The notes under the pieces were generated by a model. That model made no database searches, was not told the DNA's origin, and was given only the letters and a program-made list of their open reading frames with translations. Shown piece after piece: positions 2,156-57,542 of a stretch of 64,000 nucleotides of DNA (position 1 is its first letter; every line of letters starts with the position of its first letter). Both the position numbers and the translations under genes were made by a program. The DNA comes from Candidatus Synoicihabitans sp. (lineage in GTDB: Bacteria; Verrucomicrobiota; Verrucomicrobiia; Opitutales; Opitutaceae). Location of the stretch: assembly GCA_965203585.1 (NCBI GenBank), contig CBDBDC010000001.1, forward strand, positions 4,021 to 68,020, read 5' to 3'.

Positions 2156-3352
2156 TCACTCACCGGAGTACTCGATCAGGGCGCCGTTTGCCTTCAGTGC
2201 GTCGATGTCGTGTTGCGCGACGCCGACCGACTGCAGGATCTCGGCAGAATGCTCACCCAGGCGTGGCGCTGGTGCCCGAATCTCGGCCGGCGTTTCGTCG
2301 AATCTGATCGGCGGCCGCGCCTGACGTACCTGGCCGTGCTCCGCGAAGTCGTAGATGGCGATCGTGTCGTTGGCCAGCACCTGTTCGTGGTCGATCAGTT
2401 CGGTACGTTTCAGCAGTGGCGCCGACGGCACGCCGTTCGCGTCGAGCCTCGGCAGCAGCTCGTCGCGGTCCCACTGGCTGATCTCTTCCGCGGTCATGCG
2501 TTTCCTGAGCTCGGCGTTCCTGAATCGCTCGGTCGTCGTTGCGAATCGCTCGTCATCGATCCATTCGGGTTTGCTCAGCGCCGTGCACATGCCGCGCCAC
2601 TCGGCGTCGGATACTGCGCCGGCGGTAATGTAGCCGGTTTTTGTTTCGTAGATCAGGTCCATCGTGCCCTGATATTTGGTGACGTCGATTTCGTCGCCGA
2701 CAAACGTCAGGCCCGACATGCCTTCCGGCCAGAAGAACGACACCATCGTGTCCAGCATCGACAGCCGCACGTGTTGCCCCTTGCCCATTCGCTCGCGCGC
2801 AAACAGCGCCGACGAGACGGCTTGCGCGGCCGTCAGCGACGTGACCTTGTCGCAGACGATGATCCGGAACATCTTGGGCCGACCCGTTTCACGATCCGCC
2901 TGGATGTCGGTTGCACCGGTCAACGCCTGAATCACGGGGTCGTAGACCCGCTGATTGGCGTACGGTCCGGACTCGCCGAAGCCGCTGATGGACAGGTACA
3001 CCACGTCGGGATTGATTTCGCGCACCATCGGCTCTCCGAACCCCATGCGGTCGATCGCGCCTGGCCTGAAGTTCTGCATGACCACGTCGGCGGTCGCCAG
3101 CAGTTTCATCAGAGGTTCGCGTGTGGCCGGGTCCTTCAGGTCCAGGCACAGGGAACGCTTACCGCGATTACACGAGAAAAAGCCGGCCGTGACGCCGTTG
3201 CGCTTGTTGCCGATGTGCCGCATTTCGTCGCCGCGCGGCGACTCGACCTTGATTACGTCGGCACCCTGATCCGCGAGCATCGCCGCCGCGAACGGGCCGG
3301 ATACCATCGCGGTGAAGTCGACGACGCGAATGCCGTCCAACGGTCCTGGCAT
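2156..3352 (-). CDS. CaiB/BaiF family (class III) CoA-transferase
   Basis: N-terminal hallmark LDGIRVVDFTAMVSGPFAAAMLADQGADVIKVE and a full-length 398-aa family III CoA-transferase-like sequence. Confidence 0.85.
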   Translation of the reverse strand: MPGPLDGIRVVDFTAMVSGPFAAAMLADQGADVIKVESPRGDEMRHIGNKRNGVTAGFFSCNRGKRSLCLDLKDPATREPLMKLLATADVVMQNFRPGAIDRMGFGEPMVREINPDVVYLSISGFGESGPYANQRVYDPVIQALTGATDIQADRETGRPKMFRIIVCDKVTSLTAAQAVSSALFARERMGKGQHVRLSMLDTMVSFFWPEGMSGLTFVGDEIDVTKYQGTMDLIYETKTGYITAGAVSDAEWRGMCTALSKPEWIDDERFATTTERFRNAELRKRMTAEEISQWDRDELLPRLDANGVPSAPLLKRTELIDHEQVLANDTIAIYDFAEHGQVRQARPPIRFDETPAEIRAPAPRLGEHSAEILQSVGVAQHDIDALKANGALIEYSGE

Positions 3353-3492
3353 GGAGACTCCCTCGATTGCTTGGCGGCTGGGCCCGTCAGTTTCCCAGAC
3401 TGCCCGCGCATGTCAAAGCGGGCGCGTGTCCGCTACCCAGTTGCCGAGATTCTTGCGATGCTAGTCCGCTTCGATCGGGTAGGGGGGAACCG

Positions 3493-10232: not shown

Positions 10233-10430
10233 GATGCTCTCCGTTGGCTCACACGGTGTTGGCGTCGCGCCTGCCAGGCAGCACGATCCACCATTCGATT
10301 TAATCAGGTTATTCTTTTGCGTGACACAGATGAAGGTGATAACCGGCCAGCATGACCGTCTCGGGTGCCCACACGCGGTACCCGACCAGAGGCTGGTCAC
10401 ATCCGCGGAAATAGCAGGAAGGGGAGCGGA

Positions 10431-11657
10431 ATGACTGATGCGCACGAAGGCGGCGAGGACTATCTGTTTGGCGGTCTGAAAGTGCTCGATGTTGGCACCT
10501 GGATCGCCGCACCGGTTGCGACGACGATGCTTGCCGACTATGGCGCCAGCGTCATCAAGGTGGAAATGCCCGGGCATGGTGACGCCTACCGGCACTTTTC
10601 GGGGATGCCGGGCACGCCCACCGCCGACGTCAACTACTGCTGGCTCATGGACGGTCGCAACAAGCGCTCCATAACGCTGGACCTGAAAAGCGGCGCCGGT
10701 ATCAGGATCCTGCACCAGCTGATCGGCGAGTGCGATGTCTACGTCACCAACCACCCACTGCCGCTGCGGCGCGAGCTGGGCCTGACGTATGACGACCTCG
10801 CGGCGCTCAATCCGAAGCTGATCTATGCATCGTTGACCGCATATGGAGAGCAGGGTCCGGAACGAGATCGGGAAGGGTTCGATCTGGTTGCGTACTGGTC
10901 CCGGCCGGCGCTGATGGATCTCGTTCGCAGTTCGCCCGAAACGCAGCCCGCGCACTCGTTACCAGGCATGGGCGATCACCCGACCGCGGTGTCGATGTAC
11001 GCGAACATCGTCACGGCGCTGTTGCGCCGCGAACGTACCGGCAAGGGCAGCCACGTACACACGTCCCTGATTGCGAACGGGCTGTGGTCGGCGTCCTGCA
11101 TCGCGCAGGCGCGGCTGTGTAACGCGGATTTTTCGGCATTCCGCCACCCGCAGCACATGGCGTTTACCCGCGGACTGTATCAGACGAGCGACAGCCGCTG
11201 GCTGCAGTTCACGATGGTCCGAACGCCCGAGGAGCAGCAGGCGCTGCTCGCAGCCGTCGGCGGACTGCACCTGCTGGAGGATCCCCGGTTCGCCACGGCG
11301 GAAGACCGTTTTGCGAATGGCGCGGAGATGGTCGCTGCTGTACGGCCGCTGCTGGCCGCGCGGTCGAGCGAGGAGTGGATGGCCGTGTTCCGCGACGCTG
11401 GCGTCCCGGCGGCGCTGATCGGGGTGCTGGATGATCTGCCGCACGATCCTCAGATCGCGATCAACGACATGGCGCCGGCACCGGTGGACGACGTAGGCGC
11501 GCAACGCGTGATCAAACACCCGTTGAACATCGAAGGTCTGCCGCGGGTCGGGGTCACCCGGGCGCCGGAGATCGGCGAACACAGCGTCGCGGTGTTGACC
11601 GAGCTCGGCTACACGGACGAGCAGATTGCCGAGCTCGCCCTCGACGACGTGATTTAA
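10431..11657 (+). CDS. CaiB/BaiF family (class III) CoA-transferase
   Basis: LKVLDVGTWIAAPVATTMLADYGASVIKVEMPGHGD hallmark. The ATG at 10431 follows GGGGAGCGGA. Confidence 0.85.
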   Translation: MTDAHEGGEDYLFGGLKVLDVGTWIAAPVATTMLADYGASVIKVEMPGHGDAYRHFSGMPGTPTADVNYCWLMDGRNKRSITLDLKSGAGIRILHQLIGECDVYVTNHPLPLRRELGLTYDDLAALNPKLIYASLTAYGEQGPERDREGFDLVAYWSRPALMDLVRSSPETQPAHSLPGMGDHPTAVSMYANIVTALLRRERTGKGSHVHTSLIANGLWSASCIAQARLCNADFSAFRHPQHMAFTRGLYQTSDSRWLQFTMVRTPEEQQALLAAVGGLHLLEDPRFATAEDRFANGAEMVAAVRPLLAARSSEEWMAVFRDAGVPAALIGVLDDLPHDPQIAINDMAPAPVDDVGAQRVIKHPLNIEGLPRVGVTRAPEIGEHSVAVLTELGYTDEQIAELALDDVI

Positions 11658-12823
11658 CCGGCGGCGGCCGGAAACACCCGCAGGAAATTCTCGCTGTAGA
11701 ACCTGGTGCGCACCGACTCGTCGACGTTGCCGAGCGATTGCTCGAAACGCCCCAGCGGATTGCGTCCGCCTTCGGGATGTGGGTAGTCGCTGGAGAACAG
11801 GTACAGATCCGGACTCGACTGCGCGACGAGTTTACCGATGTCCTCGTAAACGTACGGGGTGAACGCGAACTGGGTCGCGATCTGTTCCGACGGCTTGCGT
11901 GACAGCGCGGCCAGCTCCACATCGCTCTTGCGCCAGATGTCGACGATCCAGTCCAGCCGATCCAGCATGGCCGGGACCCAGCCGGCGCCGAGTTCGACGC
12001 TGGCGCCGGTCAGCGTAGGGAACCGTTCGAAGACGCCGTCCAGCACCATCATGCTCAGGAATCGTTCCGCCATGTGGTGCACGCTCGTCATGTCCTTGCC
12101 GCGGACGTTTTCCCCGCCGCCGAGCCAGTCCTTCGGCAGCGGCCGGCCGTTGTTCATCCACGCTTTCGAAACCTGAAGTGCATCGCCGCCGATGTGAATG
12201 ACGAACGGGATGCCAGCCTCCTGCAGGCGCGCCCAGAACGGGTCCAGGTCGTCGTGCCCGGGAGAGCGCCCGCCGCAGTCGCGATGCGGAACCCACACCG
12301 CGCCGCAGCCGTCGGCCAGCACCGTGTCGAGTTCGGCGAGTGCGCGTGCCGGGTCGTCGAGCGTGATCGCGGCTACGCCCATCAGCCGCTCGTCGGCCGC
12401 GCAGAACGCGTGCATCGCGCGGTTGTGCGCGCGGGCGGCGCCGTAGCGGACGTCCAGATCCGTGCGAGTGGAAAACACCATGCCTTCGCTGACAGACGCG
12501 AACACGAGCTGCTTGCGGAAACCAAGCAGGTCCAGTACGCGGCTGCGCTCCTCGGCGTTGAACGCGCCGGGCGCGTCGTAGCCTTTCGGGCCGCGCAGAA
12601 TGTCGTCGCCCATCTCCAGCGCTTTCTGCACATCGGCTTCCAGGTGCCGGCCGCCCTGCGCGACCAGCGTGTCCAGATTGCGCTGCAACCCGGAGTTGGC
12701 GCCGAAGTCGATCGGCGGCAGCGCGTCGCGAATGTGCGGGTCTGCAAAGTCGGTCAGGAACGTTGGCAGTTCCATGATGTGGCTGTCTGCGTCGTAGAGC
12801 ACGCGGTCCGCTGCGTAGGTCAT
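11654..12823 (-). CDS. Amidohydrolase-2 family metal-dependent hydrolase/decarboxylase
   Basis: DADSHIMELP near the N-terminus and FSSDYPHPEGG near the C-terminus, typical of the ACMSD/amidohydrolase_2 family. The stop overlaps the convergent CoA-transferase stop by 4 nt. Confidence 0.75.
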   Translation of the reverse strand: MTYAADRVLYDADSHIMELPTFLTDFADPHIRDALPPIDFGANSGLQRNLDTLVAQGGRHLEADVQKALEMGDDILRGPKGYDAPGAFNAEERSRVLDLLGFRKQLVFASVSEGMVFSTRTDLDVRYGAARAHNRAMHAFCAADERLMGVAAITLDDPARALAELDTVLADGCGAVWVPHRDCGGRSPGHDDLDPFWARLQEAGIPFVIHIGGDALQVSKAWMNNGRPLPKDWLGGGENVRGKDMTSVHHMAERFLSMMVLDGVFERFPTLTGASVELGAGWVPAMLDRLDWIVDIWRKSDVELAALSRKPSEQIATQFAFTPYVYEDIGKLVAQSSPDLYLFSSDYPHPEGGRNPLGRFEQSLGNVDESVRTRFYSENFLRVFPAAAG

Positions 12824-12969
12824 ATTGCCTCCTCAATCCTTTGAATGCCGTTGTGCGAGCGTAGGCGAATCGACGGTGCCGGGCAAATACCGGTTCGTCC
12901 GGCCGGCGCGTGCACTGCAAGCCGGCAATGCGATACCCTGTGCGCTGCCGTGGAAAACGGGAGGGAGGC

Positions 12970-13446
12970 ATGGCGGCCAAGCTCGAGCCCCGGGATCAGT
13001 TCCCGGATCTGGCGCTGAACGTCGCGGGCGGGGGCGCCGTGGCGCTACCCGGCGACATTCAGACCGACTATGCGCTGGTGCTCTTTTATCGCGGCCACTG
13101 GTGACCGTTCTGTCGCCGTTTGTTAAACGGCTATCAGGAGCGTCTGGCACAGTTCAGGGATCTCGGTGTGTCTCTGTTTGCCGGCACCGTCGACTCCGAG
13201 GAGGACACCCTCGAGGTCGGCAAGGACCTGGACTTTCCGGTAGCGTACGGCATGACTCGCGCGGACGGGGACGCAATCGGCGCCTGGTGGGAAGAACGCC
13301 GCGATCACATTCAACCGTCCGAGTTCCTGTTGCGCGGCGACGGCCGAGTCCTTGCATCCACGTACAGCAATTCTCCGGTTGGCCGCATGGATCCGGGCGA
13401 AACTGCCAGGCTCATCGACTTCATCGCGTCGATGGCCCGCAAGTGA
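12970..13446 (+). CDS. Peroxiredoxin-like (AhpC/TSA, thioredoxin-fold) selenoprotein; in-frame TGA 13102-13104 read as Sec
   Basis: Track ORFs 12910-13104 and 13120-13446 share a frame and are separated only by TGA. Read through, they give LVLFYRGHW-U-PFCRRLLNGYQERLAQFRDLGVSLFAG, where the TGA sits where AhpC/TSA proteins carry the peroxidatic Cys (W-C-P-x-C). GGGAGGGAGG SD before the ATG at 12970. A hairpin lies 10 nt after the TGA. Confidence 0.75.
13115..13131 (+). promoter_or_regulatory. Candidate bacterial SECIS hairpin for the peroxiredoxin-like gene
   Basis: GCCGTTT-GTT-AAACGGC, a perfect 7-bp stem (or 6 bp with a UGUUA loop). It starts 10 nt after the UGA, and the G/U-containing apical loop is about 18 nt downstream. 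Hand-folded only. Confidence 0.5.
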
Positions 13447-13488
13447 TGATGGTCGAGCCTCAGCGGCAGCGCCGGTAGTAGCTGCGCG

Positions 13489-14709
13489 ATGCTGGACGCG
13501 GACGTACCCGAACACCTGGCGACACTCGAGTGTCCGGTTTACGAGCCGACCGCCGCAGTTGCGGGAACCGCGCTCGACGCGAGGCGCGTCGCGCTGATCT
13601 CGTCCGCCGGACTGATGCATCAGGGTGATCCGCCGTTCGGCTTCGGTGCCGCCGATTACCGGGTCATCGACGCCGACTCGCCGGTACCCGTGTTGATGAC
13701 GCACGTATCCACGAACTTCGACCGTACCGGTTTCGCGCAGGACGCCAACGTCGTACTACCACTCGACCGGCTGCGGGAGCTGGTGGCGGACGGCGTCATT
13801 GGCAGCGTCGCCCGGTTTCACTATTCGTTCATGGGCGCAACCGCGCCGGACCTGTTCGAGGAACCTGTCACCAGGGTGGCGGGGCAGCTTGCTGCCGACG
13901 AAGTCGACCTGGCACTGTTGATACCCGTGTGACCGCTCTGTACGCGCGCCGTGTGCGGGCTGGCTCACTACCTCGAACGCGCGGGTGTTCCGACCGTCGT
14001 CATCGGTCTGATACCACAGCATGTGCGGCGCATGATGCCTCCGCGGGCGCTGCTGGTACCGTTCGAACTCGGGCGGCCAATTGGCCCCCCCGGGGCGCCC
14101 GCGCTGCAGCGCCGCGTGCTGACAGCGGCCCTCGAGCTCGGCGCGACTGCCCCTGCCGACCCGGTCATCGACACGTTCGAACTCGAGCCCGGAGAACGAC
14201 TGCCAGCAGCGCAGACCCAAGGATGGGCGTGTCCAGTATCGTTCGCGACCGCCGTGGACGACGAGGCGTCCACCGCAGAGCGATTGGCTGCGGAGGTACA
14301 GGCGCTTGCACCATGGTATGCGCAGGCCGTCCGCGAACGTGGCCGCACCACGGCCGGCGCATCGGGGCTCGATTTCGAAGCGATTGCGCGCTGGCTTGGC
14401 GATCTGAACGACGTTGCCGGCGCTGACGACAAGGCGCCCGAAGCGGGGCAGGACACCGCGCCGGCTGACCTTCCGTTTGGCCTGGCGCAGACGCTCAAGC
14501 TGGCAGTCGAAGATCTGAAAGCGTTTTACGTCGAAGCGGCAACCACCCAGCCCACGTCAGCGAGCGCGCCGGTCCTGGACTGGATGTGGAACGACACGCT
14601 GCTTGCGCGCGTGCTCCGCACGCTCGCGGCGCGGCTGAGCGACCATCCGGATCGTCAGCTTGCGCTTTACGCAAGTCTGACGTTCGTGCCGCGGGAACGG
14701 ATGGCATAG
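13489..14709 (+). CDS. GrdB/PrdB-like (glycine/sarcosine/betaine/D-proline reductase component B family) selenoprotein; in-frame TGA 13930-13932 read as Sec
   Basis: Track ORFs 13489-13932 and 13951-14709 share a frame. Read through: VDLALLIPV-U-PLCTRAVCGLAHYLERAGVPTVVIGL. The N-terminal part (HVSTNFDRTGFAQDANVVLPLDRLRELVADGVIGSVARFHYSFMG) resembles the selenoprotein B family as I recall it. Confidence 0.7.
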
Positions 14710-14783
14710 CCCGCGTCGGTTGGTGCGGCGGATCCTTGGAGCTGAAACTTTGCAACTGAATCATGTCACTGGAGGAGCAGACG

Positions 14784-15317
14784 ATGATTGATTACCACGA
14801 TCCACGGGCGGAGACCGCCGGCGAGGTTGAGCCATATGCGCTCAGCGTCGACCTGGGCCGGCTCAACGAGGCGCGTATCGGATTTCTGGCAAACGGCTTC
14901 CCCGACTCCGATCGATTTCTGGAGAAGGTCGCCGAGGTCATGAGCGAGCGCCTCGACGGCGTTCAACACGTGCACGAAAACAAAGGCAACGCATCGATCC
15001 CGGCACCGGATGTGCTGCTCGATTCGATGCAGAACCAGTGCCAGGCGGCAATCGCCGCCTATGGTCACTGAGGCAGCTGCACAACCGGCACCGTGCGTGA
15101 CGGCATTGCACTGGCTCGAAGGGGAGTGCCCGTGGTGGCGCTTGTTACCGAGGAATTCTGGCCGCAGGGTGACTTCGTGGCTGCGTCGCTCGGTATGCCG
15201 GACGTTCCACGGGTGAAGCTGCCGCATCCTGTTGCGGGTACCGGCGAAGCGAACCTGCGCCGCGTCGCGGAAGCGATCGTTCCGGAGATCATTGCCGCTC
15301 TGGAAGGCGCCCGGTGA
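14784..15317 (+). CDS. UGSC-motif selenoprotein (small GrdB-like redox module); in-frame TGA 15069-15071 read as Sec
   Basis: Track ORFs 14763-15071 and 15093-15317 share a frame. Read through: AAIAAYGH-U-GSCTTGTVRDGIALARRGVPVVALVT. The ATG at 14784 follows GGAGGAG. The Sec loop resembles that of the preceding gene. Confidence 0.65.
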
Positions 15318-16405
15318 GCGGAATGTTGCAGTCGGCAGACGAAGCTGCTGCGCTCGAGAACCTGCACGCGCTCGGCTGCACTGATGGACTGCCCGTCGTG
15401 GTTCCAACCGTGGACCGCGTCGCGCGCATGGTACTCGCGACCGGGTACGACGCCGACATGGTGCTCGGAGAAATGGGACCCGGCAACGGGATTGCGACCG
15501 TCGAACAGGTTGCGGTCGCCGCGGTCATGGCGGGATGTCTACCCGACTACATGCCGCTCGTCGTCGCCGCCGTGCGCGCAGTGATTGCGCCGGAGTTCGA
15601 TCTTACCGAGATGCAGTCGACGACACATTGCACGGCGCCGCTCGTGATCGTCAACGGCCCGGCGCGCCAGACCTGCGGTCCCGTTGCGTCAGGATTTGGC
15701 GCGCTCGGACCGGGTCACCGAGCCAACGCCAGCATCGGCAGGGCGCTCAGGCTTGCAATGATGAACATCGGCGGCGCCCGACCCGGGACCTCCGACATGG
15801 CGCTGCTCGGCCACCCGGGAAAATTCACCTACTGCCTGGCGGAAGACGAGGAAACCAGCCCGTTTCCGCCGCTGCATGTAGCGCGCGGTTTCGACCCGGA
15901 CGACAGCGTCGTGACCGTCATCGGCGCGGAAGCACCCCATTCGGTGATCTTCTCGGGCGACGCCGACAATCCCGAGTCGTACCGCGGGTTGATCCACGCG
16001 TTGGCGGTTGGCCTCGCAAACCTGGCGACCAACAATGCCGTTCTGCGGCACGGGTCCGCAACGGTGATTCTGAATCCCGAGCACGCCGACGTGCTGCATG
16101 CCGCCGGTCTGGGGCGCGCGGATATTGCCCGGGCGCTTCACGAGTCCTGCGTTCACTCGATATCCGATCTTGCCGAAGTCGCGCCCGCGTTTGCTGGCCG
16201 CGACGGCGACGACGAACGCAAGCACTGTTTTGACGGTCCCGACGACATCCTCGTTCTGGTCGCGGGCGGTAGCGGGCTGTACTCGATGGTGATGCCGTCG
16301 TGGTGCGCCGGGGCGCACAACAACTCGGCGGTCAGTGTGACGGTGGACGTCGATCAGTTCTGCGAGGTGCCGGGGCTCGGCGAGGCGCTGACGACGGACG
16401 TCTGA
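15314..16405 (+). CDS. Conserved-looking hypothetical protein (363 aa), translationally coupled to the UGSC gene
   Basis: GTGA start/stop overlap at 15314-15317 (alternative ATG at 15323). Long ORF with high third-position GC. I recognise no family (motifs LHALGCTDGLPVVVP, QSTTHCTAPLVIVNGP, GHPGKFTYCLAEDE). Confidence 0.6.
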   Translation: MSGMLQSADEAAALENLHALGCTDGLPVVVPTVDRVARMVLATGYDADMVLGEMGPGNGIATVEQVAVAAVMAGCLPDYMPLVVAAVRAVIAPEFDLTEMQSTTHCTAPLVIVNGPARQTCGPVASGFGALGPGHRANASIGRALRLAMMNIGGARPGTSDMALLGHPGKFTYCLAEDEETSPFPPLHVARGFDPDDSVVTVIGAEAPHSVIFSGDADNPESYRGLIHALAVGLANLATNNAVLRHGSATVILNPEHADVLHAAGLGRADIARALHESCVHSISDLAEVAPAFAGRDGDDERKHCFDGPDDILVLVAGGSGLYSMVMPSWCAGAHNNSAVSVTVDVDQFCEVPGLGEALTTDV

Positions 16406-16514
16406 ACGTCTGCGGCTGCATTGCCGGCGCCAGCTAGCGAAAAAGCGCTTACAATCGACATACGTTCCGGGCACAGCAGTGTGACCTGGGTCTCACTACC
16501 GTGGTGCGGGAGAT

Positions 16515-16967
16515 ATGAGACCCGGGATCATCATGAAGTACTCGCCCGCATCCGGCGCGACCCGCGCGCCGTTCCGTCCGGCCCTGTTGCTGACGCTCGC
16601 GATCGCCGCCGGAGGGTGTGAGTCGATCGACCGTCGCGAGGCCGCCTGGCTGTCCCTGCACGCTGTCGATGTCGCCCAGACGCTGAGCGCGGCAGACGAT
16701 CCGTGTTATCGCGAAAAGACCTGGTTGACGGAGCGGCTGATCGGAGAGCAGCCGAGCGACGGGGAAGTCGTTGCGTGGGGCCTCGGCACCGCCGTGGCGC
16801 ACTGGCTGATCGGCGAAACGCTGAAGCAACACGACGCGCCCCGGTGGCTGCAGGCCGTCTGGAGCTATACGACGATTGCCCACACCGGGTATGCCGTGAT
16901 CAACAACCACGACGAAGGCGTGCGGGTGTTCGGTGACAACAAGAACGTGCCGGGTTGCAGCGGATAG
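16515..16967 (+). CDS. Hypothetical lipoprotein
   Basis: Signal peptide with lipobox LAIAAGGC. The start could instead be the ATG at 16533. Confidence 0.55.
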   Translation: MRPGIIMKYSPASGATRAPFRPALLLTLAIAAGGCESIDRREAAWLSLHAVDVAQTLSAADDPCYREKTWLTERLIGEQPSDGEVVAWGLGTAVAHWLIGETLKQHDAPRWLQAVWSYTTIAHTGYAVINNHDEGVRVFGDNKNVPGCSG

Positions 16968-17093
16968 CCAGCGCCGGTGTCGGACAGCCGCGCTGGTCGG
17001 TAGTCACCGGCGCGCGGTAGTATTCCGATGTCGTAGTGCCGGCTGGGGGCGCCGGAGTGAACGCCGGGCATACCGGCAGTTCGGAGAGACACG

Positions 17094-18014
17094 ATGACTG
17101 AAACTTCTTGCGGGCCGGTCCGGCTGACGCGCGGGACCCGCCTGCCGCGCAGGCGCTTAGGCCGTCTGACGGTAGCCGCGGCCTGTGCGACCGTGCTTCT
17201 CCTGGCCGGCTGCGCCGGGGCGCCGCGCGTGCCGCTGGACCAGGCGCAACTCGACGCCTACTTTCAGGACGTACCGGAAAAAGCGGATGCGGTCGACCCG
17301 CTTGCGGTCACGGACGAGATGCGTGCGTTCGCCCGGTTCATCAAAGGCCGTGCCCGGGCTGACAGCACCAAGCTCGAACACCTGCTGAAAGGCATGTTCG
17401 AACGTGGTCTGTCCGAGCTGCAGTACCACCCGTTCACGACGCTGACCGCCGCCGAGACGTTCGAGCGCCAGGTCGGTAACTGCCTGTCTTACACCAATCT
17501 GTTCGTTGCGCTGGCGCGCGAATCCGGCATGAAAGTCAGTTACCAGGTCGTGGACGTGCCGCCGATGTGGCTTTCGGACGGCGAGTCGGTGGTGCGCAAC
17601 ACGCACATCAACACGCTTGTGCGTAACGCCCGGGACAACAGCATCCTGGGTCGCGATTTCGCAATCGACTTCAACAACACCGAGTACAGCGACCGTTATC
17701 CGGTCGAAGTGGTGACCGACGACTATGCCATTGCCGTATACCACGGCAACCTCGCCGTGGAAGCGCTTAGTCGAGACGACACCGACACCGCGCTCGCTCA
17801 CCTGTGGCGGGCGCTGTCCATCCGCTCCGATGTCGCGCATCTGTGGGTCAACCTCGGTGTGGCACGCAGTCGACGAGGTGAGCACGACGCGTCGCTGGCG
17901 GCCTACGAGCGCGCACTAGCGCTCGACCCCGCCAATCCCTCGGCGCTCGTCAACATCTCGGTCGCCTACGACCGGCTGGGACTGACACAGCGTTCGGCCG
18001 ACATACGCCGCTAG
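17094..18014 (+). CDS. Transglutaminase-like cysteine-protease-fold lipoprotein with C-terminal TPR repeats (ends at an in-frame TAG; the frame stays open to 18296)
   Basis: Lipobox LLLAGCAG, transglutaminase-core-like QVGNCLSYTNLFVALARESG, and TPR-like repeats. GGAGAGA SD upstream. See the finding on the TAG at 18012-18014. Confidence 0.65.
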   Translation: MTETSCGPVRLTRGTRLPRRRLGRLTVAAACATVLLLAGCAGAPRVPLDQAQLDAYFQDVPEKADAVDPLAVTDEMRAFARFIKGRARADSTKLEHLLKGMFERGLSELQYHPFTTLTAAETFERQVGNCLSYTNLFVALARESGMKVSYQVVDVPPMWLSDGESVVRNTHINTLVRNARDNSILGRDFAIDFNNTEYSDRYPVEVVTDDYAIAVYHGNLAVEALSRDDTDTALAHLWRALSIRSDVAHLWVNLGVARSRRGEHDASLAAYERALALDPANPSALVNISVAYDRLGLTQRSADIRR

Positions 18015-55410: not shown

Positions 55411-57542
55411 CTAGAACACCAGGCGAACGCCCGCTTCCACGGTGCGTCCCGGCGCCGGCGCGAAGTCCTTGATGAACGACGTATGGTGGCGCTGCTCGTC
55501 GTCGGTCAGGTTTCTGCCTTCGGCGAACACGCTGACCGAGCTGTCGCCGAAGCCGAACTCGGCACCGACGTAGATCCGCAGATCTTCGTGCCGAGCGGTG
55601 ACCAATTCGTTTTCGGCGACGTCGTCCTGCTCCGTGACGTGCGTGTAGTCGACCGACGCGGTCAGCACGCCAAAGGTTCCTTCGAGGCCAAGGCCGTAGC
55701 GAAGCGGGGGGATGCGCGGCAGATGGTCGTTGCCGCTGACGTCCAGCTCGGCGTCCACGTAGTCGAGCATCACGCGCGCGTGCAGCATGCCGCCGCTGAA
55801 CTCGGCAACCCGCGCCCGCGCTTCCAGATCGACGCCAAAGAAAGCCGCGTCGTCCTGCAGGTAGGCAAAACACCGGCAGTTCGTCTTCCTCGTCGCCGGT
55901 TGGTTGCTGGTAGATGAAATCGCCGAAGCGGATGTAGTACGCCGTCGCGGACAGCGCACCCCAATCGGCCGCGAAGTCGAGTGTTGCGGACAGGCTCGCC
56001 GCGCTCTCCGTGTCGAGATCCTGGTTGCCGACCTCGAACGCGCCGGTGGTCAGGTGCGGCCCAAAGGAGTACAGCTCCTCAGCAACGGGTGCGCGGACGG
56101 AATAGTCTGCGTGCAGCCCCAGCTTCCAGACGTCGTCGAGCGGTACGATCAATCCGAGCGCGGCTGCGCCCGTTGTGAAGTTTTCGCTCTCGTTGGGCAC
56201 CTCGGCCATCTTCCGGATCGTGATCGACGCGCCCGATCCGGGCGCCGGTCTCCAGGTCGAAGCCGTCGAACGACCGCTGGCCGACCCAGAATATGCCGGT
56301 GTCGAGGGTGTCCACCGGCGGCACGAAAGCTTCGTCACCAATTGCTGAAAACTCGCGGTCCGCGTGCTGCAAGCCGAACGCACCCTGCCATCGATCCGTC
56401 TCATAGACCAGCTCGGTCCGGAACTCCCACGCATCGTTCTCGAAATCCGTGCCGAGCGCGCCATCCGGCTCGATTTCCTGGTGCTCGTAGTCGTTGACGC
56501 CGACGCGCACGTTCAGGCTCGTGAACACACCGAACGGATCCTGGACGCCGAGCTCCAAGTCGACCCTGGTCTGTTCGAGCTCCAGTGTCGGTACGCCTTC
56601 GACTTCATCCTCGTGCTCGCCTTCCGCTTCTTCTCCTTCCTCGTGCTCTTCTTCGTGCCCGTGCGCATGCCCGCCGGGCAGCCCGTATTCCGCGTCCATT
56701 CGGCTGACGGAAACGCCGATGAAACCCCACTCGGCGACATACGACGCGCCGCCCGCAAACGCGGTCGAGTCGAACTCGGAGCCTGGCAACACGCCTCGAA
56801 CTTCCTCGTCTTCGTCGTGTTCTTCCTCTTCCTCGTGCCCTTCTTCCTCCTCGTGCTCTTCTTCTTCGAGCGCGCGAGCACGGGAGGACTCGGCAAAGCC
56901 GGGAATCTCGTAGTCGTCACCGTCCTTGAACGTGCCGTCGAGATGCCACGCGAATCGACCACCACCCCCGTTCAGCTTGGCGCTAGTCGTGTTGCCGTCG
57001 TTGGCGTCGTCGAAGCGCGTCTCGATACCGCCGCTGACCGGCTGGTCCGGCACGCGGTGTGGTATGCGGTTTGTGTGTACGTCAACGACGCCTCCGATTG
57101 CGCCCGGCCCGTACAGCAGCGCGCTGGAACCCTTCAGCACCTCGACGCGTTCGGCAATGAAGGGTTCGACCGCAACCAGGTGGTCGGAGCTCGTGACCGA
57201 CACGTCGAGCGCATCGATGCGATCTTCCATGACCCGTACCCGCGGACCGCCGAGTCCGTGGATGACGGGCCGCCCAACGGCGGCGCCGAACGAGGCGGAG
57301 TGAATGCCCGGTTCACGCGCCAGCGTGGCGCCGATGTTCGCGGCCGCCTTCCGCTCCAGCTCGGCGCCGGCGAGCACGCTGCTCGCCTGCGACAAACCCT
57401 CGCTGGACAGAGGATGGCTGGCAACGACCACCACCTCGTCGATCCGGTCGGACCGCTTGTCCCCGGACTCTTCGCCATAAACTGATGTATGGACGGCCAG
57501 GCAGCCGACTGCGACCGCGCGTAGCGTGTGACTCACGTTCAT
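55411..57542 (-). pseudogene. TonB-dependent receptor with His/Glu-rich loops, disrupted by two frameshifts
   Basis: GGGAG SD, signal peptide and plug (DEVVVVASH, VEVLKGSSALLYGPGAIGGVV). Loops EEEEHEEEEGHEEEEEHDEDEE and HAHGHEEEHEEGEEAEGEHEDE. Three track ORFs in three frames join at about 56205-56215 and at AAAA 55867-55870. Ends ...EAGVRLVF. Confidence 0.75.

Follow-up and report, generated by a model that had tools for sequence, protein, structure and literature searches.

A predicted stand-alone selenoprotein of the GRDB/PrdB superfamily with a conserved C-terminal extension in Candidatus Synoicihabitans sp.

The DNA analysed here is a 64,000-nucleotide stretch from Candidatus Synoicihabitans sp. 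(contig CBDBDC010000001.1; hereafter the window), and the gene of interest is a PrdB-like open reading frame (ORF) at 13489–14709 on the forward strand. Its coding sequence comprises 406 codons followed by TAG and contains one in-frame UGA that is read here as selenocysteine (Sec). Translation runs from the ATG at 13489 through the TGA at 13930–13932 (codon 148) to the TAG at 14707–14709. The sequence around codon 148 reads ...LALLIPV-U-PLCTRAVCGLAHYLERAGVPTVVIGL..., with the local motif V-U-P-L-C-T-R-A-V, and the G+C content at third codon positions (GC3) is coding-like on both sides of the TGA (0.78 before and 0.74 after). Two regions were distinguished in the protein, both encoded on the same strand as the gene: a PrdB/GRDB-like alpha/beta domain, which is the span matched by family profiles (13567–14136, residues 27–216), and a family-specific C-terminal extension (14137–14706, residues 217–406), which consists of a linker with a W-x-C-P motif and a helical domain.

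Profile searches, run with U written as C in the read-through protein, revealed significant similarity to the selenoprotein B family. The strongest match was to D-proline reductase PrdB of NCBIfam (TIGR04483, E = 2.4e-26), in which residues 27–216 corresponded to profile positions 25–216 of 238 and the alignment crossed the TGA. TIGR01917, TIGR01918, NF040794, and NF040795 also matched the protein at E values of about 1e-12 to 1e-13. In addition, Pfam GRDB (PF07355) matched residues 27–144 with 31.5 bits against a gathering cut-off of 22 (E = 1.5e-7), which places the protein within the superfamily, and relatives also carry PF07355 as a precomputed assignment. These results agree with the sequence-only reading of this DNA, which had likened the two segments flanking the UGA to the Sec-loop region of component B of the glycine, sarcosine, betaine, and D-proline reductases.

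Placement relative to PrdB, GrdB, GrdF, and GrdH was based on curated hidden Markov model (HMM) cut-offs, and each of them was missed: 92.6 vs. 300 bits for the equivalog TIGR04483 (PrdB), 46.1 vs. 602 for TIGR01917 (GrdB), 48 vs. 800 for NF040794 (GrdF), 49.4 vs. 775 for NF040795 (GrdH), and 49 vs. 65.45 for the subfamily model TIGR01918. Because every PrdB and GrdB equivalog cut-off was missed, the gene belongs, by these HMM scores, to a stand-alone clade that is distinct within the selenoprotein B (GRDB/PrdB) superfamily.

Relatives were collected from DNA with a single genome for each species. A relative was present in at least 573 species-level genomes, and the best 80 loci were analysed; the alignments of 81 Sec forms consist of these loci and the window's own sequence. 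The 80 loci were drawn from Alphaproteobacteria, Gammaproteobacteria (Pseudomonadales, OM182), SAR202/Dehalococcoidia, Desulfobacterota, Vicinamibacterales, and others. A TGA was present at the same aligned codon 148 in all 80, and a single tblastn match spanned query residues ~1–406 at each locus. The U-x-x-C motif (U148-P-L-C151) was invariant: both U148 and Cys151 (13939–13941, forward strand), the putative resolving cysteine, were found in 81 of 81 sequences. UxxC is the listed motif of PrdB and GrdB (PMC2398784 Table 2; PMC13188914).

Homologues with Cys in place of Sec provided a second line of evidence. An exhaustive, profile-free comparison of the Cys-form protein P0003 with 1.84 billion representatives gave 2,127 matches, and about 20 of the top 150 were uninterrupted proteins of 380–420 aa. 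Nearly all uninterrupted homologues carry Cys at the Sec column, as PVCPxCTR (CxxC). Full-length Cys forms include P0003, P0004, P0005, and members of P0224–P0323, and they occur in at least one named species, Falsiroseomonas selenitidurans, the source of P0003. Thus, the two halves of the protein do not occur as separate genes, an outcome that the sequence-only reading had named as one that would overturn it; they share one frame in the 80 TGA relatives and in the Cys forms.

Public protein data represent this family mostly in pieces. Automatic callers split the window's gene itself into P0104 (147 aa) and P0001 (252 aa). When 5.8 billion proteins were searched, about 100 clusters matched; most were of ~245 aa, covered the part after the TGA, and were labelled 'hypothetical protein', and a few were full-length relatives of 403–418 aa. 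The 147-aa N-terminal part used as a query gave 3,869 clusters (90% identity); nearly all of the best 120 listed were 145–157 aa long, and these fragment entries carry the names PrdB or GRDB family. Relatives appear in the JGI and NCBI pipelines as 'D-proline reductase (dithiol) PrdB' or 'selenoprotein B family'. The called C-terminal ORFs begin arbitrarily within a helix of the alpha/beta domain. Because callers stop at UGA, the ~147-aa and ~245-aa database entries are gene-calling artefacts. As judged from sequence, the PrdB-like family is very large and predominantly selenium-dependent.

In Escherichia coli fdhF, SelB recognises a G-U-containing apical loop about 20 nt past the UGA. The bacterial selenocysteine insertion sequence (SECIS), as defined by the fdhF element and the bSECISearch model, is a stem-loop that follows the UGA directly and carries G/U in its apical loop, ~16–37 nt downstream. 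The PrdB-like gene has a hairpin of this geometry at 13944–13960 on the forward strand. It comprises a 7-bp G+C-rich stem, formed by positions 15–21 and 25–31 counted from the U of the UGA, and a loop G22-U23-N24 at 13951–13953. A hairpin that had been folded by hand in the sequence-only reading (13948–13960, UGUG loop) coincides essentially with this element. An Rfam scan of 13000–16000 with E values up to 10 found no SECIS or other RNA family and gave only a chance match to a CRISPR repeat.

The hairpin was then evaluated by comparison of the relatives. A gap-free alignment of 80 sequences from the UGA onwards gave the consensus UGA CCN NNN UGY ACG CGC GCC GUN GGC GSG CUN, in which loop G22 and U23 are invariant. 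Compensatory changes were observed at pair 16/30 (CG 71, AU 4, UA 3), pair 17/29 (GC 31, UG 4, CG 3), and pair 15/31 (GC 70, UA 2). The covariation score of the real alignment was not reached in any of 500 column shuffles, and pairing fell from 80% to 31–58% when the 3' partners were slid by 1–3 columns. Moreover, the codons for Thr152 (ACG in 73 of 81), Arg153 (CGC in 68 of 72), and Ala154 (GCC in 74 of 79) are nearly frozen; their codon entropy is 0.31–0.60 bits, whereas 59 other conserved degenerate codons average 1.75 bits and reach no lower than 1.31. This suppression of synonymous variation at codons 152–154 indicates selection on the RNA rather than on the protein. The conserved G-U loop, the compensatory changes, and the strongly suppressed synonymous variation therefore identify 13944–13960 as a predicted bacterial SECIS. 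With UGA148 recoded as Sec, the gene is predicted to be a genuine selenoprotein gene.

The sequence-only reading had noted a long C-terminal extension of about 200 aa, and such an extension is indeed present and conserved. It measures ~190 aa and is kept in all 80 Sec-form loci, each covered by the tblastn match to residues 1–406, and in the Cys forms; a few shorter relatives (246–293 aa) lack it. Seven of its residues are invariant among the 81 Sec forms, namely C248, E269, W276, D342, P355, W365, and T370. Cys248 (14230–14232, forward strand), which lies in the W-x-C-P motif, is the third invariant redox-capable residue of the protein (81 of 81). Invariant residues of the alpha/beta domain include R58, H72, S74, N76, D78, G81, and P91, and further along R186, F192, G195-R196-P197, G199, and Q207; R79, also invariant, is listed among the polar residues proposed to line a pocket. 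Residues 217–406 matched no Pfam or NCBIfam family, and a PDB sequence search with the PrdB-like protein gave no relative at E < 0.1.

The structure was modelled by AlphaFold2 on the Cys-form homologue P0003, which is 41% identical to the window's protein. The model is a single globule with a mean predicted local distance difference test (pLDDT) score of 93.3 and a predicted template modelling (pTM) score of 0.92. Strands and helices alternate in the alpha/beta domain, with the Cys/Sec position at the junction between a strand and the helix that follows, and the C-terminus forms a linker and seven helices (residues 268–404 in P0003 numbering). In this model, the extension is, with high confidence, a helical domain that packs against the alpha/beta domain. 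A Foldseek search of the full-length P0003 model against the PDB found nothing at E < 0.01, and the best matches were generic flavodoxin-like or B12-binding folds (E > 0.02, TM < 0.3). The structure prediction that the sequence-only reading had proposed for the extension hence yielded, by way of P0003, a confident helical domain with no analogue in the PDB.

The genomic context of the PrdB-like gene was evaluated next to that of its relatives. No PrdA/GrdE, GrdA, GrdC, or PrdC was found among the window neighbours by Pfam and NCBIfam annotation, and no PrdA, GrdE, GrdA, or GrdC partner was found in the flanks of the 80 related loci. The earlier statement that no partner reductase subunits lie nearby was thereby confirmed and extended. 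Neighbours in the relatives were surveyed by clustering of flanking ORFs (80 loci) and by a Pfam scan of 75 upstream and 75 downstream immediate neighbours. The most frequent neighbour cluster was found in only 9 of 80 loci. The immediate neighbours belonged to 81 Pfam families upstream (n = 75) and 109 downstream (n = 75), none of them in more than 5 loci, and no reductase-complex family was among the Pfam families listed for them. Because no neighbour is conserved, the PrdB-like gene behaves as a stand-alone unit.

The recurring neighbours were enoyl-CoA hydratase and short-chain dehydrogenase (SDR) in 9 loci each, SelD and Zn-dependent alcohol dehydrogenase in 8 each, family III CoA-transferase in 7 (of 81, with the window counted), and SelB and pyridine-nucleotide disulfide oxidoreductase in 5 each. 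Family III CoA-transferase was regarded as the most frequent metabolic neighbour, if still a rare one. Two such genes lie in the window, at 2156–3412 on the reverse strand and 10365–11657 on the forward strand, and in three of the seven loci (L059, L070, and L072) a family III CoA-transferase gene of the same strand ends immediately upstream of the PrdB-like gene. SelD and SelB, where found, lie within ~4 kb of the PrdB-like gene (e.g. L014 4903–5967, L054 2441–4360), which hints that the latter may be a principal selenoprotein gene of these genomes. Two full-length TGA paralogues (L027 and L040) lie ~290 kb apart in one Candidatus Azotimanducaceae metagenome-assembled genome (MAG; contig CBDFIL010000002.1), and several of the 80 loci have a second PrdB-like ORF within 4 kb (flanking-ORF clusters 0 and 1).

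The window also encodes a TonB-dependent receptor, a P450, a luciferase-like monooxygenase, an amidohydrolase, the two family III CoA-transferases, and an alkyl sulfatase. Its repertoire, as annotated, is that of an aerobic Gram-negative heterotroph, and the closest matches of the adjacent genes are in Pseudomonadales MAGs. The sequence-only reading had pointed out a non-fermentative context, which is less surprising than it had appeared, since 'PrdB' is abundant in oxic seawater: from 2005 onwards, surveys have reported a 'PrdB' class (pfam07355, UxxC) as one of the most abundant selenoprotein classes in the Sargasso Sea and in the Global Ocean Sampling (GOS) survey, with 42 Sec vs. 1 Cys forms and 235 vs. 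110, respectively (PMC1088965, PMC2398784). A coding-bias scan of the window also flagged an in-frame TGA at 56346 on the forward strand ('...VTNC-U-KLAV...'); this candidate was rejected because its frame is not protein-like and is probably a shadow of the opposite strand.

Two further putative selenoprotein genes flank the PrdB-like gene on the same strand. The upstream one encodes a Prx-like (AhpC/TSA) selenoprotein (12970–13446) with a TGA at 13102–13104 in the motif W-U-P-F-C, and it ends 42 nt before the PrdB-like start. PF00578 matched residues 8–127 of its product across the TGA (E = 1.5e-13), the hairpin after its UGA folds at -17.2 kcal/mol (z = -1.9) with a GUU loop, and ORF lists split the gene into 12910–13104 and 13120–13446. 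The downstream one encodes a UGSC-family selenoprotein (14784–15314) with a TGA at 15069–15071 and starts 74 nt after the PrdB-like stop. Its product matched PF24696 (E = 1.1e-45) and NF041046 (109.8 bits), and a hairpin follows its UGA. UGSC is another top family of the GOS survey (PMC2398784). Therefore, the sequence-only description of the setting was right in that reductase partners are missing but incomplete in that the gene is not isolated; it lies within a same-strand run of three selenoprotein genes.

The UGSC gene shares the last nucleotide of its stop with a 363-aa ORF (15314–16405, forward strand; GC3 0.79) that has no Pfam, NCBIfam, or PDB match. UGSC was surveyed in 141 loci (L081–L221), 22 of the Cys form and 119 with the Sec-form pattern (118 confirmed). 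A homologue of the 363-aa ORF was present in the same locus as UGSC in all 22 Cys-form loci and in 117 of the 119 Sec-form-pattern loci, directly downstream of UGSC wherever coordinates were listed. In these genomes, UGSC and the 363-aa ORF constitute, as far as gene order tells, a strictly conserved two-gene module, and the ORF is probably the 'Unknown_1' domain that is sometimes fused to UGSC (PMC2398784).

In contrast to this tight pairing, UGSC was rejected as a conserved partner of the PrdB-like gene: only 3 of the 80 PrdB-like loci (L003, L013, and L016) have it within 6 kb, and none of the 141 UGSC loci has a PrdB-like gene nearby. A Prx-like homologue was found in 1 of the 80 PrdB-like loci. 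No sigma-70 promoter match was found in 12600–17100, and the sole terminator-like match (13099–13118) lies inside the Prx-like gene, over its UGA hairpin. The three-gene cluster is best read as a local selenoprotein island and possibly as an operon; to judge from its distribution, it is not a conserved system.

The fold of UGSC was assessed with an AlphaFold2 model of the homologue P0368 (m70074cc0d5cb), which is 56% identical to the window's UGSC. With a pLDDT of 95.3, the model shows an alpha/beta fold of five strands that in the PDB best matches flavodoxin-like proteins: AzoR (E = 1e-4, TM ~0.46–0.48), flavodoxins, and type II dehydroquinase (TM ~0.45–0.5). It does not fit the thioredoxin-like fold proposed in PMC2398784. 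The Sec lies at a strand-helix junction, as in the PrdB-like model, and a strand-UxxC-helix-G(V/I)PxV-strand element is common to UGSC and the PrdB-like domain. An hhalign comparison of the two gave a local and weak match (38 columns, E = 0.0034, probability 9%).

We consider it probable that the PrdB-like protein, as a stand-alone member of the selenoprotein B superfamily, acts as a self-contained selenol/thiol reductase. In PrdB and GrdB, Sec attacks the substrate, the neighbouring Cys resolves the adduct to a selenenyl-sulfide, and a dithiol system reduces it (PMC13188914). The roles of Sec and Cys were assigned here by following this established mechanism. By analogy, Sec148 would attack an electrophilic centre of a substrate, which may be held in a pocket lined by R58, H72, S74, N76, D78, R79, and the C-terminal domain. 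Cys151 would then resolve the adduct into a selenenyl-sulfide, and a general thiol system of the cell would re-reduce the Se–S bond, possibly through Cys248. In the present genome, this recycling may also involve the two selenoproteins encoded next to it, the Prx-like and the UGSC one. In the clostridial sense, the protein is neither a D-proline nor a glycine reductase.

Several observations weigh against the interpretation of the gene as a stand-alone selenoprotein reductase. Folded alone, the 51 nt from the UGA give -17.8 kcal/mol with z = -0.4 and are no more stable than shuffled sequences, which reflects the G+C richness of the region. In the window's copy of the hairpin, pairs 17/29 and 21/25 are mismatched because codon 156 specifies Cys in place of the Gly found in most relatives, and the sequence can also adopt a shifted alternative fold. 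Of the SECIS folding proposed in the sequence-only reading, the single-sequence test thus gave no support, but the comparison of 80 sequences did. No SelD or SelB (tblastn) and no tRNA-Sec was found within the 64-kb window. The absence of reductase partners was likewise established for the window, and a partner encoded in trans elsewhere is possible. Furthermore, C248 is present in most Cys forms but missing from P0004, P0225, P0237, and P0243; since some Cys-form homologues do without it, C248 may not be essential.

A possible, if doubtful, alternative is a role in general thiol/selenol redox chemistry: the protein might, for example, reduce disulfides, peroxides, or persulfides or serve as a component of a redox relay, would not cleave C–N or C–X bonds of small molecules, and in this genome would form one redox-defence operon with the Prx-like and UGSC proteins. 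The arrangement in the window suits this idea, as three UxxC selenoprotein genes follow one another on the same strand with gaps of 42 and 74 nt, the fourth ORF overlaps the UGSC stop, and no promoter or terminator match separates the genes, the terminator-like sequence being internal to the Prx-like gene. The shared strand-UxxC-helix-strand element and the flavodoxin-like UGSC model point in the same direction, and the heterogeneous context of the relatives, with pyridine-nucleotide disulfide oxidoreductases nearby in 5 loci, would fit a housekeeping redox protein. However, the redox-defence linkage is rare and poorly supported across the family (UGSC in 3 of 80 loci, PrdB-like near UGSC in 0 of 141, Prx-like in 1 of 80), and the many invariant polar residues outside the redox motif, together with a dedicated 190-aa domain, suggest a specific substrate pocket.

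It is very unlikely that the protein instead serves as component B of a genuine reductase for D-proline, glycine, sarcosine, or betaine whose partners (PrdA/GrdE, GrdA, GrdC, and PrdC) are encoded elsewhere. This reading would explain why PrdB (TIGR04483) is the best profile match and why the JGI and NCBI pipelines label relatives as PrdB or selenoprotein B family. Yet the scores fall far below all equivalog and subfamily cut-offs (92.6 vs. 300, 46 vs. 602, and 49 vs. 65.45), the protein has a conserved domain that PrdB lacks and misses the N-terminal half of GrdB, and no partner gene was present in the window or the 80 loci, whereas the characterised systems are operons (PMC13188914). The P450 and the luciferase-like monooxygenase of the window, both O2-dependent, also speak against it. 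The failed equivalog cut-offs, the different architecture, and the lack of partners in 81 loci are what make this reading unlikely.

That the TGA is a true stop, leaving a truncated 147-aa protein and an independent 252-aa gene or a pseudogene, would agree with the callers' annotation of P0104 and P0001 and of thousands of relatives and with the lack of visible Sec machinery in the window, but it is hardly credible given a TGA that all 80 loci, from several phyla, keep in frame at one aligned codon, its replacement by Cys in uninterrupted homologues, a conserved SECIS under RNA-level constraint, a PrdB profile alignment that crosses it, and called C-terminal ORFs that start arbitrarily inside a helix of the alpha/beta domain.

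The self-contained selenol/thiol reductase that we favour belongs to a family that is already known and catalogued but uncharacterised, and the window's gene is a further member of it. To a specialist, its occurrence in an aerobe is unsurprising, and the result for the window is mostly confirmatory. The missing PrdA, the extra domain, and the function of the 'PrdB' class are not discussed in PMC1088965, PMC2398784, PMC9312934, or PMC13188914, and a full-text literature search for "PrdB-like" found nothing. We tentatively propose, as a rather speculative extension, that the PrdB-like clade, and not true PrdB, is the abundant 'proline reductase' of oxic waters and that its private helical domain with Cys248 replaces the substrate-binding and activating role of the pyruvoyl subunit. 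If this were true, aerobic bacteria could reductively cleave a common small molecule, for example an osmolyte or an amino-acid derivative. In public annotation, members are labelled as Stickland-type proline or glycine reductases and are split at the UGA, and each of these errors skews the metabolic reconstruction of marine and soil bacteria. A stand-alone two-domain enzyme with three invariant redox residues and natural Cys forms makes the role of marine 'PrdB' in aerobes testable.

Among the systems with which the PrdB-like protein can be compared, the 'PrdB' class of the marine surveys (PMC1088965, PMC2398784) resembles it by description, being a pfam07355 family with UxxC, mostly with Sec, from oxic surface water. 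The relatives found here are largely marine and freshwater MAGs, and JGI uses the same name for them. The surveys differ in giving counts only, without the C-terminal domain, the missing partners, or a function. UGSC (PF24696, NF041046) shares the UxxC where a beta-strand ends, with a helix and then a G-(V/I)-P-x-V strand coming next, and is likewise abundant in aquatic metagenomes; in contrast to the PrdB-like protein, it has 177 aa, has its own 363-aa partner gene, and is rarely linked to the PrdB-like gene.

GrdB, GrdF, and GrdH (TIGR01917, NF040794, NF040795; PF07355) belong to the same superfamily, as shown by the GRDB match above its cut-off and the UxxC motif. However, only the C-terminal half of their ~435-aa chain is matched (profile positions ~220–416), and the N-terminal half is absent from the PrdB-like protein, which has a different C-terminal domain appended; moreover, no grdA, grdE, grdC, or grdD lies near the PrdB-like gene. 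The likeness to PrdB of Clostridium sticklandii and Clostridioides difficile (TIGR04483) extends further, with homology over nearly the whole ~240-aa PrdB chain, Sec in UxxC, and a bacterial SECIS directly after the UGA. PrdB has no counterpart of the additional ~190-aa helical domain and the third invariant Cys, as it is a single domain of ~240 aa compared with 406 aa here, and the PrdB-like gene has no prdA (pyruvoyl proprotein), prdC, prdD, prdE, or prdF neighbour. In contrast to PrdB, the PrdB-like family is found in aerobic heterotrophs as well as in anaerobes.

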